This document shows, piece by piece, positions 13,311-20,273 of a stretch of 64,000 bases of DNA (the stretch's first letter is position 1; the number at the start of each line of letters is the position of its first letter). Made by a program: the position numbers and the translations under genes. Origin of the DNA: an uncultured Planctomycetia bacterium. Lineage in GTDB: Bacteria > Omnitrophota > Gorgyraeia > Duberdicusellales > 4484-171. The notes under the pieces are model-generated. The model made no database searches, was not told the origin of the DNA, and saw nothing but the letters and a program-made list of their open reading frames with translations. The DNA is taken from NCBI GenBank assembly GCA_964629655.1, contig CAZVQU010000002.1, forward strand, positions 298,840-362,839, written 5' to 3'.

Positions 13311-14063
13311 CTAAGTATTGTCTCTCTGAACTAAAAGCCTCTCAGCCTTATAGAAATCCTCTTCGGTATCAACACCACAAGAATCAAATTGGGTTTCAAA
13401 AACTTTTATCTTGTAACCAGCCTCTAAGGCCCTTAGTTGTTCTAATTTTTCTGATCCTTCTAATGAGGATTCGGGAAGATTCTTAAAAGTATAAAGAAAA
13501 TCCTTGGTATAGGCATAAATTCCTAAGTGCTTATAGTATAGGCGTGGGCTGCTTTCGTCTCGATGAAAGGGAATTGGAAAACGAGAAAAATAAAGCGCAT
13601 CATCTTCCCGGGTAGTTACAACCTTGACAACATTAGGATTATTTATCTCACTCTCTTCATCGATCCTCTTCTTAGCTGTAGCCATAACTAACTCCTCATT
13701 CGAGAGCATTTCCTGAGCCAACCTATCAATTACTGAATGATGGATAAGCGGCTCATCAGCCTGGATATTTATAACAACTTTAACATTAATGTCTCTTACG
13801 GCTTCAGCTATTCTATCTGTACCTGAAGAATGCTCAAGAGATGTTAAGATAACCTCAGCCCCGAACTTTTCGGCTTCCTTCTTTATTTCAAGGTGGTCAC
13901 AAGCAATAATTAGCCTGTCTAGACTATGAGTGGCAGATGCATTCTCCCAAGTCCATTGCAACAAGCTCTTGCCACGAATCGTACGCAGAAGCTTATGGCT
14001 GAGCCTAGTTGATTCATACCGTGCCGGTATTACACCAATTACATTAAACTTAGTTTCCATCAA
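13311..14063 (-). CDS. kdsB: 3-deoxy-manno-octulosonate cytidylyltransferase (CMP-Kdo synthetase)
   Basis: 250 aa. N-terminal VIGVIPARYESTRL nucleotidyltransferase motif and IQADEP motif typical of KdsB. Confidence 0.9.
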   Translation of the reverse strand: MMETKFNVIGVIPARYESTRLSHKLLRTIRGKSLLQWTWENASATHSLDRLIIACDHLEIKKEAEKFGAEVILTSLEHSSGTDRIAEAVRDINVKVVINIQADEPLIHHSVIDRLAQEMLSNEELVMATAKKRIDEESEINNPNVVKVVTTREDDALYFSRFPIPFHRDESSPRLYYKHLGIYAYTKDFLYTFKNLPESSLEGSEKLEQLRALEAGYKIKVFETQFDSCGVDTEEDFYKAERLLVQRDNT

Positions 14064-15024
14064 TTGCCTTATTGAGCTCTTTTCTATTTACAGTTGCTGC
14101 TCCTAACTTACCGACTACAATTCCAGCAGCAAAATTCGCAATCATTGCCGCTTCTCTATAAGAGGCTCCGGCAGTCAGAGCTAAAGTAAAAGCAGAAATT
14201 ACTGTATCTCCGGCTCCGCTGACATCAAAAACCTCCAAGGCTGCTGTGGGAATATGATAATGGTCATTGCCGGAAAACAACATCATTCCATCTTCACCTA
14301 AGGTGATTAAAAGCGCCTTAGGGTTCAACTTCTTCATGATTATCTTGCCTAAGAAAAATAGCTGTTTCTTATTTCGTATCTTGATTCCGGCTGTAGCCTG
14401 GGCTTCCTTCAAATTAGGGGTAAGAGCAGTTACATTTTCATAGTAATCAAAGTGTTCCTCTTTGGGGTCAACAGTAATTACCTTCTTCTTCTTACGGCAC
14501 AAGTTTACTAACTCCTCAAGCAATAGAGGATTTATTACCCCTTTACCGTAATCTTCGACAATTACAGCATCAAAATCATCGAGGTTCTTCTTAATTTTAT
14601 TAAGAACCAGCTTATTTGTATTTGCCGAAAGAAATTCTAATGATTCCCAATCAACTCTTACCACTTGTTGATGGTGAGCAATTATTCTAGTCTTTAAGGT
14701 AGTCGGTCTCTTATTATCTCTAACAATCAAATCGGTAGAGATACCGCACTTACCAATAAGAGAAAATAAAGTTTTACCGAAATGATCCCTGCCAGTAACT
14801 CCGCAAAGACTCACCTTTGCCCCCATAGCGCTAAGGTTAAGGCCTACATTAGCAGCCCCTCCGGGAACGAAATTCTCCCGATTAGCCCAGACTACTGGAA
14901 CTGGAGCCTCTGGAGAAACCCGGTCAACGCTTCCAAAAATATGATGATCAAGAATCAAGTCTCCAACTACAAGGATTTTCTTATTCTTAAAACGAGAAGC
15001 GATATTTTTTAGCTTCTTCTTCAC
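14050..15024 (-). CDS. rfaE: D-beta-D-heptose 7-phosphate kinase (RfaE/HldE domain I, PfkB family carbohydrate kinase)
   Basis: 324 aa. PfkB ribokinase-like motifs (GGAANV..., DVSGAGDT). Starts on GTG with a GGGAGA RBS. LPS-core context. Confidence 0.8.
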   Translation of the reverse strand: MKKKLKNIASRFKNKKILVVGDLILDHHIFGSVDRVSPEAPVPVVWANRENFVPGGAANVGLNLSAMGAKVSLCGVTGRDHFGKTLFSLIGKCGISTDLIVRDNKRPTTLKTRIIAHHQQVVRVDWESLEFLSANTNKLVLNKIKKNLDDFDAVIVEDYGKGVINPLLLEELVNLCRKKKKVITVDPKEEHFDYYENVTALTPNLKEAQATAGIKIRNKKQLFFLGKIIMKKLNPKALLITLGEDGMMLFSGNDHYHIPTAALEVFDVSGAGDTVISAFTLALTAGASYREAAMIANFAAGIVVGKLGAATVNRKELNKAIDGN

Positions 15025-15074
15025 TGCTTTCTCCCTTTAAAATCAAGCCCTAAAGCTGCCAATATAACCAAACA

Positions 15075-15083
15075 ATTATACCA
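15075..15083 (-). promoter_or_regulatory. candidate extended -10 promoter element (TGGTATAAT on minus strand) upstream of rfaE
   Basis: Minus-strand TGGTATAAT (TGn + TATAAT) lies ~50 nt upstream of the rfaE GTG start. No good -35. Sits in an AT-rich region 15025-15224. Confidence 0.35.
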
Positions 15084-15224
15084 TTCTAATAGAAAAAATC
15101 TACAATAAAACTATATATTACTATATATATAATATGTACTGGTTTTAAAGGCTAAAATCGGTTGGACCAAGCTTAACCGCTAAAAAATAGCAGCTACCGG
15201 AAATCTGATTGTCGACGGAAAATA

Positions 15225-15389
15225 GAGGAATCCTTTAAGTGTAAATTCAATACTCCTTATTTATCAACATACAATACCAAAAGCTTTTTATGCGCCATAA
15301 TTTTAGCTGTACATTTTTTAGATTTAGTGACACATGAATGAGAATGTTTTGGAATTGGGCGGACACAGTTTAAGCACACACTTTGCCAT
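15225..15389 (-). repeat. repeat unit copy 1: small ORF + spacer + conserved 46-nt block
   Basis: Block 15225-15270 (plus: gaggaatcctttaagtgtaaattcaatactccttatttatcaacat) is 43/46 identical to 17355-17400. The 21-codon ORF at 15324-15389 is paralogous to the one at 17455-17526. Confidence 0.8.
15324..15389 (-). CDS. small ORF, 21 aa: MAKCVLKLCPPNSKTFSFMCH (conserved-motif peptide, paralog 1)
   Basis: Hand-translated from the reverse complement. ATG at 15389..15387, TAA at 15326..15324. It begins 33 nt downstream of the methyltransferase stop on the same strand. It shares K-L-C-P-x-N-x-K-T and a C-terminal H with the 17455..17526 ORF, with synonymous differences in the conserved codons (TGT/TGC, CCG/CCA, AAT/AAC). 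The RBS is weak: GAGAGG abuts the ATG. Confidence 0.45.
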   Translation of the reverse strand: MAKCVLKLCPPNSKTFSFMCH

Positions 15390-15422
15390 CCTCTCTAAAA
15401 GGAAGTATTTTGTAATGTAAGT

Positions 15423-16022
15423 TTAGTGGTAAGCTATTGCTATTTTCTGATAATCAGATTTATGTATGCCGACCTCAAAACCCTTGATTGTGAGGTAAGC
15501 TACTGCGACACCTAGCTTATCTTTCGGAAACACATGCTCTCTTCCTTCACTTTTGTGAATTCTTTCGATAAGCTTAAAACCTTCTTCAGTGAAATCGCTT
15601 AAGACAATCTTACCATTTTCTGAAAGAACTCTTGTCATTTCGTCTACAATTTTTTCCAAGCAAGACAAATGATGTAACGTGTTAATAGAAAAAATTGTGT
15701 CGAAAGCACCATCTTTAAAGCTTAAGTTCTCGGCATTCTCTATTTTAAAATCGACAGAATTTTCAATATCCAGGTACTTTATGTTAGACATTGCATAATT
15801 CTGCTCCTCTTCTGAAATATCAATGCTTGTTAGGCGACAACCTTTTTTAGCAAGCTGAATAGTAAAATATCCCTTACCAGTCCCTACCTCCAGAATCCTT
15901 CCGTTAATCGGTTTTGCTTTGTTAAAAATAAACTCTCTCTCTTCCTCTATGTCATAGCCAAAGCTCTTGTACAGCTTGATTCTCTCTAGGTAGTACTCAT
16001 AGCTATCAGCCACCTTATTCAT
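15423..16022 (-). CDS. class I SAM-dependent methyltransferase (Methyltransf_11/UbiE-like)
   Basis: 199 aa. Motif I ILEVGTGKGYFT, with downstream acidic and DGAFD motifs of Rossmann-fold MTases. Confidence 0.8.
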   Translation of the reverse strand: MNKVADSYEYYLERIKLYKSFGYDIEEEREFIFNKAKPINGRILEVGTGKGYFTIQLAKKGCRLTSIDISEEEQNYAMSNIKYLDIENSVDFKIENAENLSFKDGAFDTIFSINTLHHLSCLEKIVDEMTRVLSENGKIVLSDFTEEGFKLIERIHKSEGREHVFPKDKLGVAVAYLTIKGFEVGIHKSDYQKIAIAYH

Positions 16023-16054
16023 AAATTACCATTAATAGCATTAGTTGTAGTCGT

Positions 16055-16378
16055 TTAGAATGTAACAACCTTGTCGCTTTCCTTTATAATATCATACATA
16101 TCATTCATCGTGGAAATAGGGCACATTTCAGACACTTCTTGCTCCCTGGACTTAATACATGTTCCACAAGCATAGATTTTACCACCCGATTGCATAAGCT
16201 CTTCTACCTGTTTAATCGTATCGAACTTCTTGGTGCCAATCTTTTGGTATTCTACCCCTTTGCCCATAAAGAAAACCTTAACTTCGTCGCCATATTTTAA
16301 ACAAAATCTGGCATAGCGTAAAGCATTCCAGCAAGTTTCTGGATCATCGGATGAAATAATGACCCCTATCTTTCCCAT
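16055..16378 (-). CDS. DsrE/DsrF-like family small protein
   Basis: 107 aa. Begins MGKIGVIISSDDPE and has the CGTC motif of a DsrE-like fold. Strong RBS AAGGAGG 6 nt upstream. The call is from memory of the family pattern. Confidence 0.55.
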   Translation of the reverse strand: MGKIGVIISSDDPETCWNALRYARFCLKYGDEVKVFFMGKGVEYQKIGTKKFDTIKQVEELMQSGGKIYACGTCIKSREQEVSEMCPISTMNDMYDIIKESDKVVTF

Positions 16379-16390
16379 AGAAACCTCCTT

Positions 16391-16756
16391 TTAATGGCAA
16401 CCATGATCTACGCAAGCGTTGTCCACGGTGATTTCTTCTAATTTGCCTTGTTCATAACTCTCAATTATCTCATGGCCAACCTTAGCGCTCACCCTATAGG
16501 CCCTGATTCCGCTTTCGTTGAGTTTTTGAACAGCTCGTGCCCCCATTCCTCTGCAAACAACAGCATTAATAGTTTGGTTCTCTAATACTTTCAAAGGGTG
16601 ACACATCCCGTGCATATGATTCTTATCGCTATTATCTATAATCTCAAAATTCTTAGCTTCAGTATCATAAATAAGAAAATGTGCTGCGCTGCCAAAATGA
16701 TCAAATACTTTTGATTTTAGACCTTCATTGGTTTCTATTGGCATGCATATTTTCAT
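16391..16756 (-). CDS. NifX/NifB-like dinitrogenase iron-molybdenum cofactor family protein (PF02579-like)
   Basis: Likely start at the MKICMPIET methionine: ATG 16756..16754 overlaps the upstream gene's stop (TGATG), implying translational coupling. The track's ORF 16391..16774 has 6 extra codons. Family-typical small protein motifs (HFG.A..F.I.D, CRGMGARA). Confidence 0.7.
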   Translation of the reverse strand: MKICMPIETNEGLKSKVFDHFGSAAHFLIYDTEAKNFEIIDNSDKNHMHGMCHPLKVLENQTINAVVCRGMGARAVQKLNESGIRAYRVSAKVGHEIIESYEQGKLEEITVDNACVDHGCH

Positions 16757-17229
16757 CAGACTATCCTCCCGCATATACCTCTGCCACGCCCCACACCTCT
16801 ACCTGCTCTTACCCAACCTTTACTTTCTGAGGCTCTATGGATATTTGTACTCTTACATTTTAGGCACCCATTAGGCCTACCCGAACCATATGGCAAACTC
16901 CACTCATTCTTGCAATCATAACAAACAAAATGTCTCTCCACCATTTTCACTACACCTCCTTCTATTTTTAATGCTTTGCCATTAACTAATGCATCTGCTA
17001 TTTTCTTATGTGCAGAAGAAATTATATTCCCAAAGGTCTGTCTTGAAACATTCATTTTTCTAGCACTATCCTCTTGATACTTATCTTCTAAATCAGCAAG
17101 GCGTACTGCCTCAAGTTCATCCATCGTAAGATTCACTTCCCTCAATGCGTCAGTCGGAATGCCTTTCGGCTTAAAATAATTAGAGTCAGGTCTACAACAC
17201 ACTTTTCTCGGCCTACACGGTCTTGGCAT
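16756..17229 (-). CDS. DUF134 (UPF0251) family predicted DNA-binding protein with extra C-terminal zinc ribbon and Gly/Arg-rich tail
   Basis: 157 aa. N-terminus MPRPCRPRKVCCRPDSNYFKPKGIP is the DUF134 hallmark. An HTH-like segment follows (QEDSARKMNVSRQTFGNIISSAHKK). The C-terminus adds CYDC...CLKC (a C-x2-C...C-x2-C ribbon) and ends GRGVGRGRGICGRIV. Confidence 0.75.
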   Translation of the reverse strand: MPRPCRPRKVCCRPDSNYFKPKGIPTDALREVNLTMDELEAVRLADLEDKYQEDSARKMNVSRQTFGNIISSAHKKIADALVNGKALKIEGGVVKMVERHFVCYDCKNEWSLPYGSGRPNGCLKCKSTNIHRASESKGWVRAGRGVGRGRGICGRIV

Positions 17230-17244
17230 ATGGCCCCCTTTGTA

Positions 17245-17264
17245 TTATTAGCATATGCTAATAA
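17245..17264. promoter_or_regulatory. perfect 20-bp palindrome TTATTAGCATATGCTAATAA (candidate operator) overlapping the -10/TSS of the DUF134-operon promoter
   Basis: Verified base by base: 17245-17264 equals its own reverse complement. It overlaps the predicted -10 (17261-17266) and lies ~20 nt upstream of the DUF134 start codon. Confidence 0.6.
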
Positions 17265-17289
17265 TAACATACTTCTATCTATATGTCAA
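17261..17289 (-). promoter_or_regulatory. sigma70-like promoter for the DUF134-NifX-DsrE-MTase operon (-35 TTGACA, 17-nt spacer, -10 TATTAT)
   Basis: On the minus strand the -35 TTGACA is at 17289..17284, followed by a 17-nt spacer and the -10 TATTAT at 17266..17261. The RBS AAAGGGGG precedes the ATG at 17229. Confidence 0.55.
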
Positions 17290-17354
17290 GATTTCAAAAA
17301 GATAAAACCCCCTGCTATAAAGTTCTATAATAGGGAAAATGGATGCGGAGGGGA

Positions 17355-17526
17355 GAGGATTCCTTTAGATGTAAATTCAATACTCCTTATTTATCAACAT
17401 ATTATCAAGAAAGCCCTTTATTAGCAAGAATTTTTACTGTGCGATTGTTTACATTTAGTGACGTTTGTATGCAGATGTTTTGATGTTGGATGGGCACAGT
17501 TTGGGCACAAACTGATATGCGCCCAT
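17355..17526 (-). repeat. repeat unit copy 2: small ORF + spacer + conserved 46-nt block
   Basis: Block 17355-17400 is 43/46 identical to 15225-15270. The spacer is ~60% identical. The ORF is paralogous to copy 1. The flanking GGAGGGGAGAGGATTC (17347-17362) recurs at 19082-19097. Confidence 0.8.
17455..17526 (-). CDS. small ORF, 23 aa: MGAYQFVPKLCPSNIKTSAYKRH (conserved-motif peptide, paralog 2)
   Basis: Hand-translated. ATG at 17526..17524, TAA at 17457..17455. RBS AAGGAG sits 11 nt upstream. It begins 36 nt downstream of the 92-aa membrane protein gene stop. An in-frame upstream TAA bounds the ORF. Confidence 0.45.
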   Translation of the reverse strand: MGAYQFVPKLCPSNIKTSAYKRH

Positions 17527-17562
17527 TATTTAAACTGCTCCTTTACGCTAGGGTGGGTGAAA
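17527..17562 (-). repeat. duplicated 5' leader segment (gtaaaggagcagtttaaata + GCTAGG-TG-G), copy A, upstream of small ORF 2
   Basis: 20/20 identical to 17849-17868, with partial similarity continuing ~15 nt. Carries the AAGGAG RBS. Confidence 0.7.
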
Positions 17563-17841
17563 CTACCCGACAATAAGAAGTATAAAACTAAGAATGAAGA
17601 TAGTTACTCCACCGTACTTCAAAAATTTACCTATTTTCACAGGTTTAAAGACTCGAATTGTTTTATCTGGTGATTCTTTATCAAGCTTTATGCCTAAATT
17701 AACAAAATAAATTCCAGCCATTAGCATAAAAATATTATTTATTTTCTCTGCAATCTTACCGCCCAATCTAAAATACCCTGCAATTACACCAATGATAGCA
17801 AGAATAATCATCAATCCAACCAACCTTTTCTTCTCCATCAT
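17563..17841 (-). CDS. small integral membrane protein (3 predicted TM helices), unknown function
   Basis: 92 aa. Hydrophobic segments LVGLMIILAIIGVIAGYF, IFMLMAGIYFVNLGI and GVTIFILSFILLIVG. Strong RBS AGGAGGAATG. Confidence 0.5.
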   Translation of the reverse strand: MMEKKRLVGLMIILAIIGVIAGYFRLGGKIAEKINNIFMLMAGIYFVNLGIKLDKESPDKTIRVFKPVKIGKFLKYGGVTIFILSFILLIVG

Positions 17842-17848
17842 TCCTCCT

Positions 17849-17895
17849 TATTTAAACTGCTCCTTTACTTTGAATCCGCTAGGTTGAGACTATTC
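17849..17895 (-). repeat. duplicated 5' leader segment, copy B, upstream of the 92-aa membrane protein gene
   Basis: Identical 20-mer tatttaaactgctcctttac (plus strand) plus similar flanking sequence, as in 17527-17562. Confidence 0.7.
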
Positions 17896-18345
17896 TACAG
17901 TCCTAAATAATATCTCCCTTATAATAAATATCTTCCCCTTGTCTAGCGGTTTACCTGGTTTAATCATTTCGACAGAAAATATACCTTGGCATATTTTATC
18001 TTTAATTTCAAACGATTTTAACCATACCTGACGAACCCTATTACTAAAATTAATCTTAGCTTCGTGTTCTATTATGAGACCCTGCTTAGACGAAGCAACT
18101 TTATACCTAATTCTACGAGGTAAATCTTTATTTAACAACTCTCCATCAATTTCAGCTTTAATAATATACTTACCTCTGGGAAGAGAAAATTCTATAGAAT
18201 CTTTATCTCCTGCAGCATTCGGTAGAATTAGCTCTGTTTTATGAAGTGATTGGTTATAATATGCTCTCCAGACACTTCTTGTGCCAAACAAAACTATAAT
18301 AATAGCTAATACAATAAAGATTCCTATATTTAGTTTCCGCATCAT
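17890..18345 (-). CDS. signal-anchored/secreted hypothetical protein
   Basis: The track ORF is 173 aa. The likely true start is MMRKLNIGIFIVLAIIIVLFG (ATGATG at 18345..18340) preceded by a G-rich RBS. The upstream 22 codons (MGHIKR...) fall in the duplicated 5' region. No family recognised. Confidence 0.5.
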   Translation of the reverse strand: MMRKLNIGIFIVLAIIIVLFGTRSVWRAYYNQSLHKTELILPNAAGDKDSIEFSLPRGKYIIKAEIDGELLNKDLPRRIRYKVASSKQGLIIEHEAKINFSNRVRQVWLKSFEIKDKICQGIFSVEMIKPGKPLDKGKIFIIREILFRTVE

Positions 18346-18436
18346 CCCCCCCCTATCTCTTCTTTCCCTTCCTATATTGTTTCCAACAATCATTCTTTTG
18401 ATATGACCCATATCATTTAAATTACTTCTTGCCCCT

Positions 18437-18907
18437 TTACTTCAGTTCTGCCAAACCTCTCTCACATCCTCTTTTCCAAGCCTCTGTAAATCTCAACGCA
18501 ATCGATTTTTCAAAATTCTCTCTTTCAAAACCATCGAAGGTCTCTATCGTAGCCTTGATTTCTTTGATTTGCTCGTTTAATATTAGGATTGCTTTTTTAA
18601 AATTTTCTTTTGCCTTATCTTTCATGCCCACTTCTTTATAAGCCCAACCTAGCCTAGCATAACTCATATAATAATTCTTATCTAACCCTACAGCTTTTTC
18701 GTAAGACTCAATGGCCTTATGCAAGTCTTTCGCTTCCATGTATGCCGTTCCCAAAAGGTCCCAAGACATAGGATTATCTGGCGCCCTTTCTATCCCTTTT
18801 TTAGCCCAATCCATAAGTGACCCTTCCTCTGCGTATAGGCTACAAGATAGCAGCACACTTAATCCTACGAAACATATTATTAAGAATAATATTTTCTTCT
18901 TCATCAT
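18437..18907 (-). CDS. TPR-repeat lipoprotein
   Basis: 156 aa. Signal peptide + lipobox-like LLSCSLYA. TPR-like repeats (AYMEAKDLHKAIESYEKAVGLD, ARLGWAYKEVGMKDKAKENFKKAI). Its 5' UTR/start (ATGATGAAG with AAGGAGGG RBS) is DNA-similar to that of 17890..18345. Confidence 0.55.
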   Translation of the reverse strand: MMKKKILFLIICFVGLSVLLSCSLYAEEGSLMDWAKKGIERAPDNPMSWDLLGTAYMEAKDLHKAIESYEKAVGLDKNYYMSYARLGWAYKEVGMKDKAKENFKKAILILNEQIKEIKATIETFDGFERENFEKSIALRFTEAWKRGCERGLAELK

Positions 18908-18974
18908 CCCTCCTTATCTTTTCTTCCCCTTCCTGTATTGTTTTAAACACTAAAAAACAGTATACCACCCGAAA

Positions 18975-19100
18975 GGCTACTTTGATAGGCACAAAATGGG
19001 CACAAGAAAGAATTATTTTTTTGATGAAGTTGTAACTGACTGTACAAGAAGATGTTGTGAAGGCAAAAAACAAAAACGGAGGGGAGAGGATTCTCCGCGA
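18975..19100 (-). repeat. degenerate third copy of the small-ORF repeat family (ORF remnant without start codon) plus GGAGGGGAGAGGATTC motif
   Basis: Plus-strand gataggcacaaaatgggcacaag (18984-19006) matches copy 2's gatgggcacagtttgggcacaa. On the minus strand it reads ...FFLVPILCLSK* with an in-frame TAA upstream and no ATG. Plus 19082-19097 is identical to 17347-17362. Confidence 0.55.
19063..19098 (-). terminator. candidate intrinsic terminator downstream of hemW
   Basis: Minus-strand RNA cggag-aatcctctccc-ctccg is followed by tttttgtttttt, 50-85 nt after the hemW stop. The stem is only 5 bp (GC-rich). Confidence 0.4.
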
Positions 19101-19148
19101 CTTGAACACGTGGACTATTAAAATAAGTAAGGGTAAACCTCAATCTTT

Positions 19149-20273
19149 TCAGAGAAAAGAGCTGGAAGCAGTATCTGAGAAACAAAAGCCCTTTTTGCTC
19201 AAATAAACCCCTACTATTCGGCCTTTTTCTCTTCGGTATTTAAGTAAACTATCCTTTGAAAGTCCCTCCAAAGCCTTACCCTCCAGCTTTAGGAAATCAT
19301 AACCGGTATGGTCCTTAAACCACTCAAAATTTACACCCTCTTTGGTCCGAATCTTTATTGCTGCCAGTTCCTTGGCCTGGTTCCTTTTGGACAATGTTTC
19401 ACTAAATGAAACCAGACTCTTTTGCTTTTTTATCTTATCAATATACTCAATAACGCTAGAGACATTTTTTTCTCTCTTGCCATTGATAAAAGATACTGCA
19501 GACGGGCCTAAACCTAGGTAGGAATTACCCAACCAATAGTTCCTGTTATGCTTAGACTCAAAACCTGGCTTTGAGAAGTTTGAGATCTCATAGTGTTTAA
19601 ATCCTCTCTCGGAGAGATAATCAATAGCCCCAATATACATTTTAGCCAGCACTTCATCGCCTAAAGGAATGACAAACTTCTTCTTAACCTGCAAAAACAA
19701 CGGGGTATTTTTCTCATAGGTTAAGCAATATGTTGATATATGTTTCAGACCTAAAGAAACTGCCTGTTTCAGCTCAAGCATCCATCCAGGTAAAGTCTCC
19801 CCGGCTAGGCCAAAGATTAAATCAATTCCTATATCCTTAAAGCCGACTCTCTTGGCCAATTGGACTGCCTCTATGGCTTTCTTTGAATTATGAACTCTTC
19901 CCAGCTTCCTTAGCTTCTTATCAGAAAAAGACTGCAGACCAATACTAAGACGATTAACCCCATTATCGTGGAATAACTCCAGTTTTCTCTTATCCAGGCT
20001 CTCAGGATTAACCTCAATAGTAAACTCCTCTACCTTAGTGCTTATCCTATTCAAAGCTTTTAGCAGTTTCTTCAGTAACGGCAAGCCTAGAACACTGGGA
20101 GTCCCACCGCCAATGTAAACTGTAGAGAAATCTTGGCCCAAAGCCTTTATTTGCCTACAAAGAACCTCTATATAGGCCCCAGCTAAAACCTGATCGTAAA
20201 AGCGGCTATAGAAATCACAGTAGGAACACTTCCTCCGGCAAAAAGGTATGTGGATATATAAGGATTTCTTCAT
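19149..20273 (-). CDS. hemW: radical SAM heme chaperone / oxygen-independent coproporphyrinogen-III oxidase-like protein
   Basis: 374 aa. CxxxCxxC (CRRKCSYCDF) near the N-terminus, GGGTPS motif and HemN-like C-terminal domain. Confidence 0.85.
   Translation of the reverse strand: MKKSLYIHIPFCRRKCSYCDFYSRFYDQVLAGAYIEVLCRQIKALGQDFSTVYIGGGTPSVLGLPLLKKLLKALNRISTKVEEFTIEVNPESLDKRKLELFHDNGVNRLSIGLQSFSDKKLRKLGRVHNSKKAIEAVQLAKRVGFKDIGIDLIFGLAGETLPGWMLELKQAVSLGLKHISTYCLTYEKNTPLFLQVKKKFVIPLGDEVLAKMYIGAIDYLSERGFKHYEISNFSKPGFESKHNRNYWLGNSYLGLGPSAVSFINGKREKNVSSVIEYIDKIKKQKSLVSFSETLSKRNQAKELAAIKIRTKEGVNFEWFKDHTGYDFLKLEGKALEGLSKDSLLKYRREKGRIVGVYLSKKGFCFSDTASSSFL

Follow-up and report, generated by a model that had tools for sequence, protein, structure and literature searches.

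In phage lambda, the attachment sites attP, attL and attR are composed of a core, arm-type sites for the integrase (Int), and sites for the excisionase (Xis) and the integration host factor (IHF). A core formed by the 3′ end of a tRNA gene is found with P4-like and many island integrases. Elements that lack their own integration and transfer functions, the cis-mobilizable elements (CIMEs), are defined, together with their accretion in tandem, in the sections of PMC5704250 on the ICESt1-related elements, which Streptococcus thermophilus carries at the fda 3′ end. Tandem genomic islands of Dehalococcoides integrated at the tmRNA gene ssrA are the subject of the relevant part of PMC3146451. Here, we analyzed an island of about 4 kb located between an rfaE-like and a hemW-like gene in a stretch of 64,000 nucleotides, called the window below, from an uncultured Planctomycetia bacterium placed by GTDB in Omnitrophota (assembly GCA_964629655.1, contig CAZVQU010000002.1, positions 298,840 to 362,839). 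The island consists of seven genes, all on the minus strand, and of copies of a ~165-nt repeat, which an earlier note on this DNA, made from the letters alone, had missed. It is probable that the region ~15117/15143–19148 is a ~4.0-kb insertion that was acquired horizontally and entered at the stop codon of hemW, ahead of the native rfaE promoter, and that it is made up of two tandem, integrase-less, CIME-like mini-elements delimited by halves of lambda-type attachment sites; that an insertion is present is shown by the comparison with relatives below. The coordinates of all features are collected in Table 1.

The insertion status of the island was determined by a tblastn comparison of the window proteins with 80 related Omnitrophota loci. 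The window RfaE was 84–92% identical to the RfaE proteins of the five closest metagenome-assembled genome loci (L007–L011). The gene order glycosyltransferase–radical S-adenosylmethionine (SAM) protein–radical SAM protein–hemW–rfaE–kdsB–kdsA–kdsD was conserved across the related loci. In about a dozen relatives (L009, L010, L012, L013, L015, L017, L018, L023, L025, L028, L034, and L035), hemW and rfaE are adjacent and separated by a gap of ~100–150 nt; one of them, L009, has 90% RfaE identity. None of the seven island genes was found by tblastn within 10 kb of rfaE in any of the 80 loci. In L009, the empty site reads TCCTTTAAATTT; here the rfaE promoter region, which corresponds to window sequence at or below 15116, comes immediately after the hemW stop, and the site in L010 is empty too. 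The earlier note had proposed that 15–19 kb is an accessory island, that it splits an envelope cluster otherwise contiguous, and that synteny with related genomes should be compared. The comparison bore this out: the accessory status stands because none of the 80 loci carries an island gene and hemW and rfaE are adjacent in relatives, and the gene order around this junction shows the cluster to be contiguous in them. The outcome that the note had named as refuting, conserved presence and order of these genes in distant relatives, was not observed. A skew in composition, which the same note had suggested looking for, was not seen. The GC content (0.32–0.42) and the GC content at third codon positions (GC3, 0.26–0.42) overlapped those of the flanks, with a GC content of 0.39 for the window; an atypical composition is, however, not obligatory for genomic islands.

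The closest genome, L007 (RfaE 92% identical), carries a different insert of 1.5 kb at exactly the same junction, and the ends of this insert are homologous to those of the window island. Its cargo (L007 8533–9630) comprises a 62-aa HTH_17 excisionase-like protein, a 61-aa open reading frame (ORF), and a 231-aa protein without a Pfam match, followed by a full copy of the attR-like element beside rfaE. We also considered the hemW–rfaE junction as a general insertion hotspot and rejected the idea, given that the larger gaps in distant lineages mostly hold conserved, lineage-specific ORFs of 306 and 167 aa. These two ORFs lie between hemW and rfaE in L024, L026, L027, L032, L033, and L038, while L037 has a related longer ORF (373 aa) in the gap, plus other genes. 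In the hemW–rfaE spacer of L036 (2977–3180), a 12-nt tandem repeat makes an ORF that reads (YGIA)n.

One copy of the ~165-nt element follows each gene module of the island, one after the gene of the 92-aa membrane protein (p92) and one after the methyltransferase gene. The two copies are 74–78% identical and contain a 31-nt exact repeat; fragments of the element are present at 18984–19093. The degenerate copy next to rfaE is 77% identical to the well-preserved one and matches the right end of the L007 insert at 77–79% identity. The 17-nt sequence CGGAGGGGAGAGGATTC is repeated exactly and in direct orientation, as core b at the end of the well-preserved copy and as core a near hemW. The motif GTGCCCA-N4-GTGCCYA occurs in the well-preserved copy and among the fragments, and a degenerate version of it in the copy next to rfaE. 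This arrangement makes cassette B a unit of 1731 bp, with attL (core and P′ arm) on its left, attR (P arm and core) on its right, and the exact 17-bp core repeat at both ends. When the two halves were joined, the resulting site of 294 nt was collinear with the 298-nt complete units of the metagenomic locus L142. The P′ half of the joined site (19076–18950) was 62% identical to L142, compared with a mean of 42% and a maximum of 50% in 50 shuffles. The position of the P′ motif agrees with the spacing of 49–78 nt between tRNA and motif in integrase loci. Cassette B may still be excisable. The core of the window can be divided into GAAT/CCTCT/CCCCTCC/G and is tRNA-Ser-like by inspection; the candidate for the corresponding tRNA end is a tRNA-Ser or tRNA-Tyr with the sequence ...TTCGAATCCTCTCCCCTCCG(CCA). 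The 3′ end of core a and the T-run next to it match the family member L166. Cassette A, which is bounded by the degenerate copy, is an older and more decayed unit than cassette B.

The repeats of the window belong to a widespread family. A scan of metagenomes for GTGCCCAWWNTGTGCCYATC returned at least 120 contig stretches, and the family counts given here and below were drawn from the matches listed. Altogether, 44 loci clustered with the window copies, and a profile search based on these loci found 51 near-full copies of the element in 43 loci. The layout of the element is fixed. The 20-nt motif, with its two GTGCCCA boxes 11 nt apart, is followed by 2–4 lineage-specific 11-nt repeats with phased A-tracts, by a TTGACA-17-TATAAT-like stretch, and by a pyrimidine-rich 3′ block that begins, at constant spacing, ~127 nt past the motif. 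In L101, L109, L126, and L175, a complete tRNA-Phe(GAA) gene is located on the same strand, 1–4.5 kb upstream of the element, and in L160 a tRNA-Ser(GGA) gene takes the equivalent position. In each of these loci, the part of the upstream tRNA between T-loop and 3′ end is present a second time as the terminal block of the element. The terminator is copied as well in L109 (~75 nt in total), and the encoded CCA is kept in several copies of the element. The duplicated tRNA 3′ end at the end of the element therefore represents the anatomy of an attR site. Between the tRNA and the element, these loci contain only one or two unrelated cargo genes and no integrase. The cargo of the tRNA-Phe loci is different in every case: a 1235-aa secreted protein, small secreted proteins, a two-gene module (208 and 135 aa), and a 338-aa protein. 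The tRNA-Phe loci, on four unrelated contigs, mark a hotspot of cargo turnover with no integrase present.

The conserved layout could also be explained by a regulatory module, i.e., a transcription factor site, bent DNA, a promoter, and a short terminated leader or small RNA (sRNA), which was copied upstream of different operons as a regulon, so that the repeats would reflect shared regulation. The family consensus contains a well-conserved TATAAT and a TTGACA-like −35 box with a spacing of 17 nt, facing the downstream genes; the distance from the end of a copy to the following ORF is 15–220 nt, and intrinsic terminators come after some of the copies. Moreover, the motif alone overlaps a −35 box in L166, that of an acrB-like gene, and lies ahead of the operon of the tetratricopeptide repeat (TPR) protein in the window, and some family members form a significant hairpin (z −1.8 to −3.4). 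However, what would be the RNA part is copied from the 3′ end of the tRNA gene upstream, with CCA and terminator, the motif is also present in integrase genes beside tRNAs and flanks a tRNA-end core in L210, and the downstream genes have no common functional theme. The window copies fold no better than shuffled sequences (z +1.2, −1.0, and −0.2), RNAalifold gave no consensus secondary structure for the element family, and the element had no match in Rfam. The folds of the window copies and the absent consensus ruled out a structured sRNA or riboswitch, and the hairpin in other family members can be explained as the remnants of the tRNA T-stem and acceptor. Shared regulation is therefore an unlikely origin of the repeats, although it is partly compatible with the attachment-site model, in which the P arm can carry an outward promoter.

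The motif is tied not only to tRNAs but also to integrases. On the opposite strand (GATGGGCAC-N4-TGGGCAC), it lies within a tyrosine integrase gene in 18 loci, in the otherwise variable C-terminal tail, where it encodes ..DGHxLGT.., and in 27 occurrences a tRNA is located 49–333 nt to the left of it, mostly 49–78 nt. The combination of tRNA, motif, and abutting int gene reads as an attL site with int beside the P′ arm. In one viral contig, L210, a partial tRNA 3′ end has the motif on both sides, 140 nt before it and 46 nt after it, and an integrase is located at a distance of 1.5 kb; L142 contains two complete units. Breakpoints between related mosaic contigs (L102 vs. L163 and L107 vs. L123) fall at the motif. 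In L108 (3242–5232), a GTGCCCA pair is found in the first codons of an HTH_17 (xis-like) gene and an inverted copy in the last codons of the integrase gene, so that motif copies in opposite orientation enclose the xis-orf-int module. We found no report of the GTGCCCA motif or of the ~165-nt element in the literature.

In the tandem mini-element model, the paired GTGCCCA boxes, 11 bp apart, would be arm-type sites of a tyrosine-integrase family, the 2–4 11-bp repeats and the AT-rich promoter-like stretch would occupy the place of the Xis and IHF sites in lambda attP, and the core copies the tRNA 3′ end from the T-loop to the discriminator. Read along the minus strand, the locus would consist of hemW, a tRNA-Ser-like relic, attL (core a and P′), cassette B, attR (P and core b), cassette A under a promoter and a palindromic operator of its own, a degenerate attR (P and core c), the imported flank, and rfaE. 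The cassettes would have arrived through Int-mediated recombination and accretion. The integrase would have been lost or would act in trans, and the whole block would have been relocated to a site that is not a tRNA gene.

The proposed sites resemble those of lambda in several respects. Tandem boxes about one helical turn apart are located ~140–150 nt from the core on one side and ~46–78 nt on the other, direct repeats and AT-rich DNA separate the arm from the core, attL and attR have the same core, and the int gene abuts the P′ arm in the integrase-bearing relatives. They differ from lambda in that the core of the family is a tRNA 3′ end and the arm boxes are inside the coding tail of int; the Int and Xis sites are putative and were read from the sequence. 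With the CIMEs as presented in the ICESt1 sections of PMC5704250, cassette B shares the lack of integration and transfer genes and the preservation of attL and attR with a direct-repeat core. A second element, more decayed, adjoins it in tandem at the same insertion point, which is the layout that repeated integration into an att site already present should produce. In contrast to the elements treated there, the units of the island are small (1.7 and 2.1 kb, 3–4 genes), the site has no intact target gene end or tRNA, and the host is an uncultured member of Omnitrophota; the likeness is one of att layout, and a derivation from integrative and conjugative or integrative and mobilizable elements, like mobilization in cis, is putative here. 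The Dehalococcoides ssrA islands, to the extent that they are covered in that part of PMC3146451, are likewise horizontally acquired islands that a dedicated integrase directs to a stable-RNA gene at its 3′ end, whereas the window locus has only a relic of an RNA gene and no integrase.

Several observations weigh against the tandem mini-element model. We infer the arm-site function of the GTGCCCA boxes from their position alone. Neither integrase nor excisionase was found in the 64-kb window when it was searched by tblastn with the associated integrase and HTH_17 proteins, and a Pfam scan of the seven island genes revealed no integrase, excisionase, or transfer genes. The strongly conserved sigma-70-like promoter of the element is not required by an attachment site and hints at an additional regulatory role. 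Cassette A has no recognizable P′ arm, and its core is degraded (71% identical). Both arms around one core were seen only in L142 and L210 among the matches listed. No intact tRNA is present at the hemW–rfaE locus in the window or in any of the 80 relatives; the relic–cassettes–flank block therefore needs an extra relocation step. The relic on the left is weakly tRNA-like, and the first insertion would not be a textbook integration into a tRNA gene. Finally, no independent contig crosses the junction at 17343–17508.

The last point could indicate an assembly artefact in which the cassettes were mis-joined at the 31-nt exact repeat; indeed, every independent Logan contig stops at the repeat, and none spans either of the two element copies. 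However, contigs across the junction are missing because assemblies with k=31 break at a 31-nt exact repeat, and the contig ends are exactly those which such an assembly predicts for the arrangement in the window. Both cassettes are present in the same runs (SRR8146440 and SRR8146442) and were reproduced at 100% identity in independent Logan assemblies of at least six sequencing runs, with the four genes of cassette A on contigs bounded by the repeat. In addition, the repeat copies are only 74–78% identical outside the 31-mer, so that their flanks are distinguishable, and L007 independently has the same element beside rfaE. We regard mis-joining as very unlikely. A look-up of the DUF134 gene for strain-level alternative junctions gave only repeat-bounded contigs, while the exact RfaE and a 150-aa variant of the p173 protein were not on record.

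A bolder version of the attachment-site model takes the element family for active cassettes of 1–5 genes, each with a complete lambda-type attP site made of GTGCCCA arm sites, a tRNA-end core, and an outward promoter, which GTGCCCA-type integrases capture and shuffle in trans. We consider this version doubtful. If true, integron-like arrays would exist in Omnitrophota and other uncultured lineages, both at the genes of tRNA-Phe and tRNA-Ser and, as in the window, at secondary sites. The integron would then have a double-strand, tRNA-anchored counterpart in this family, and the family would be a new platform of gene capture. As it stands, the island is known biology, namely att-flanked decayed elements in tandem. 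Co-oriented arrays of modules with co-oriented element copies were observed in L105 (4 copies in 6.2 kb), L102, L136, L122, L142, and L170. The same 117-aa lipoprotein gene follows an element copy in L105 and L122, with different neighbours.

The arrays, in which short co-oriented modules of 1–5 genes are punctuated by a conserved repeat, are reminiscent of integron cassettes, and in an integron-like array the repeat would act as attC. Yet the element has no internal inverted repeats, and as single-stranded DNA it folds worse than shuffled sequences (z +0.6 to +2.3), which ruled out an attC-like hairpin. No IntI-type integrase or attI site was seen, the modules are often multi-gene with their own promoters, and the element is a double-strand, lambda-type site that ends in a tRNA 3′ end. 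An origin as integron cassettes is thus hardly credible.

The tandem mini-element model, if correct, provides a mechanism by which a conserved cluster for lipopolysaccharide and Kdo in an uncultured phylum with small genomes could gain accessory envelope genes as well as a small operon related to metals or sulfur. The boundary signature of ~165 nt (GTGCCCA-N4-GTGCCCA, ~127 nt, tRNA 3′ end) could be used to find integrase-less islets and arrays in metagenomes.

The earlier note had explained the island by local tandem duplication and divergence, resulting in paralogous small membrane proteins and lipoproteins of the surface with duplicated leaders. Some of its observations were confirmed. The duplicated leader is real as a 21-nt exact repeat, TTATTTAAACTGCTCCTTTAC, which brackets the p92 gene (two matches in the window vs. 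a shuffle mean of 0.00), and the duplicated 5′ untranslated region (UTR) and first codons of the TPR lipoprotein gene and the ORF of 173 aa (p173) correspond to a 42-nt repeat of the 5′ UTR and ribosome-binding site (RBS) with 83% identity. Three island genes encode exported or membrane proteins. However, the other four (DUF134, NifX-like, DsrE-like, and methyltransferase) encode proteins of the cytoplasmic type, and a pairwise blastp comparison revealed no similarity among the island proteins (every E-value > 0.2), so that they cannot be called paralogous. The description of the genes as family-less was wrong for five of the seven, which matched Methyltransf_11, DsrE, Nitro_FeMo-Co, DUF134, and TPR in the Pfam scan, and holds only for p173 and p92, both without a match. 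Unrelated contigs contain homologues of the large repeats, which are non-coding, and even the 21-nt leader is found again in unrelated contigs from metagenomes. Local duplication fits only the short 21-nt and 42-nt repeats, whereas the dominant repeats are non-coding remnants of recombination sites; as the origin of the island it is highly improbable.

The 21-nt repeat is part of a non-coding piece of ~35 nt, similar to CACCCGCCCCAAAGTAAAGGAGCAGTTTAAGTAA, which is present twice in the window (17526–17562 and 17848–17895) and recurs in the unrelated contigs L135, L181, L136, L107, L125, and L174. It is located immediately before the GTGCCCA motif or before the RBS of a small membrane-protein gene. 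We also considered whether the sequence behind the 21-nt leader encodes ..KVKEQFK* as a conserved C-terminal peptide; stop codons upstream in every instance led us to reject this and to regard the piece as conserved but non-coding. The micro-ORFs MAKCVLKLCPPNSKTFSFMCH and MGAYQFVPKLCPSNIKTSAYKRH on the minus strand and one plus-strand frame in the repeats were also considered but not retained: in L007 the frame is cut short after 11 codons, a start codon is missing from one copy, and the RBS spacing is poor.

The inserts of the window and of L007 are both bounded by an imperfect repeat of 8–9 bp, CTCTGAAA(A) on the left and CCTTTAAAA on the right, with CCTTTAAAT at the empty site. This junction microhomology is the only clue to how the block reached the hemW–rfaE site. 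The left ends of the two inserts have in common ~20 nt after the hemW stop and a segment GTTCAA.T.GCGGAGAAT. The tRNA-Ser-like relic next to hemW aligned weakly with tRNA-Ser genes. Neither ARAGORN nor Rfam called a tRNA gene at 19077–19110, and this candidate was retained only as a decayed relic. At the right boundary (15106–15147), a TA-rich, low-complexity palindromic stretch, TATATATTACTATATATATAATATGTA, is longer than its counterpart in L009.

Table 1. Positions of the island features and of the flanking genes in the window.
Feature	Position	Strand	Basis or remark
rfaE-like PfkB kinase gene	14050-15024		right neighbour of the island
Native rfaE promoter and 5′ UTR	from 15116 or lower		
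AT-rich stretch	15117-15142		
Right flank imported with the insert	15143-15212	-	common to L007, absent from L009
Right junction CCTTTAAAA	15143-15151	-	end of the imported flank
attR-like element, degenerate	15213-15377	-	nhmmer E=3.2e-18
Core c GATTCCTCTATTTTCCG	15216-15232	-	degraded
31-nt exact repeat	15240-15270 and 17370-17400		inside the two element copies
Degenerate P motif GTGCTTAAACTGTGTCCGCC	15358-15377	-	
Cassette A operon, DUF134-NifX-DsrE-methyltransferase	15423-17229	-	ORFs and Pfam
Class I SAM methyltransferase (Methyltransf_11)	15423-16022	-	Pfam; cassette A
DsrE-like protein	16055-16378	-	Pfam DsrE; cassette A
Nitro_FeMo-Co/NifX-like protein	16391-16774	-	Pfam; cassette A
DUF134 protein	16756-17229	-	Pfam; cassette A
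Cassette A promoter	17243-17289	-	TTGACA 17284-17289, 17-nt spacer, TG-extended TATTAT 17261-17266
attR-like element, well-preserved	17343-17508	-	nhmmer E=3.5e-32
Core b	17346-17362	-	
Promoter-like pair in the well-preserved element	17422-17427 and 17399-17404	-	−35 TTGCTA; −10 TAATAT
P-arm motif GTGCCCAAACTGTGCCCATC	17489-17508	-	followed by phased A-rich 11-nt repeats
21-nt exact repeat	17526-17546 and 17848-17868		
92-aa membrane protein (p92)	17563-17841	-	cassette B gene 3; ~3 hydrophobic segments, read from sequence
p173 (173-aa ORF)	17890-18411	-	cassette B gene 2; 17890-18348 from the ATGATG start (151 aa)
42-nt 5′ UTR/RBS repeat	18347-18388 and 18908-18949	-	before the p173 and TPR genes, respectively
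TPR lipoprotein, 156 aa	18437-18907	-	cassette B gene 1; lipobox LLSC; Pfam TPR
−10-like TATACT	18959-18964	-	upstream of the TPR gene
P′-arm motif GTGCCCATTTTGTGCCTATC	18984-19003	-	73 nt after core a; read as two putative integrase arm-type boxes
Spacer box TACAGTCAGTTAC	19032-19044	-	
Core a GAATCCTCTCCCCTCCG	19077-19093	-	tRNA T-loop end, T-stem 3′ strand, acceptor 3′ strand, discriminator G; T-run 19060-19076
Decayed tRNA-Ser-like relic	19094-19148	-	D-arm-like CTGAAAAGATTGAGG; T-loop-like GTTCAAGTC at 19099-19107
Left junction CTCTGAAAA	19146-19154	-	overlaps the hemW stop; imperfect direct repeat of the right junction; same junction in L007
hemW-like radical SAM gene	19149-20273		left neighbour of the island when read on the minus strand

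The genes of cassette B (TPR lipoprotein, p173, and p92) plausibly form an envelope module. A relationship of p92 to a small transmembrane protein at the equivalent position in L174 was considered and rejected, as no homology was found. The true start of p173 is probably the ATGATG at 18343–18348, which gives a protein of 151 aa, because the sequence upstream of it is homologous to the 5′ UTR and RBS of the TPR gene. The homologues of p173 are ~150 aa long and fit the shorter form. The structure model of p173 consists of an N-terminal transmembrane helix and a jelly-roll beta-sandwich (pLDDT 89), for which a fold search gave only generic jelly-roll matches (TM-score ≤0.53). The p173 family is rare, with 19 representatives at E<1e-3 among 1.84 billion proteins.

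Operons of the type found in cassette A are common in anaerobes. A perfect 24-nt palindrome, TATTATTAGCATATGCTAATAATA, at 17243–17266 overlaps the TG-extended −10 box of a strong, near-consensus promoter just upstream of the DUF134 gene. It is likely the autoregulatory operator for the DUF134 DNA-binding protein, and cassette A, as judged from this arrangement, appears to be a self-regulated operon.

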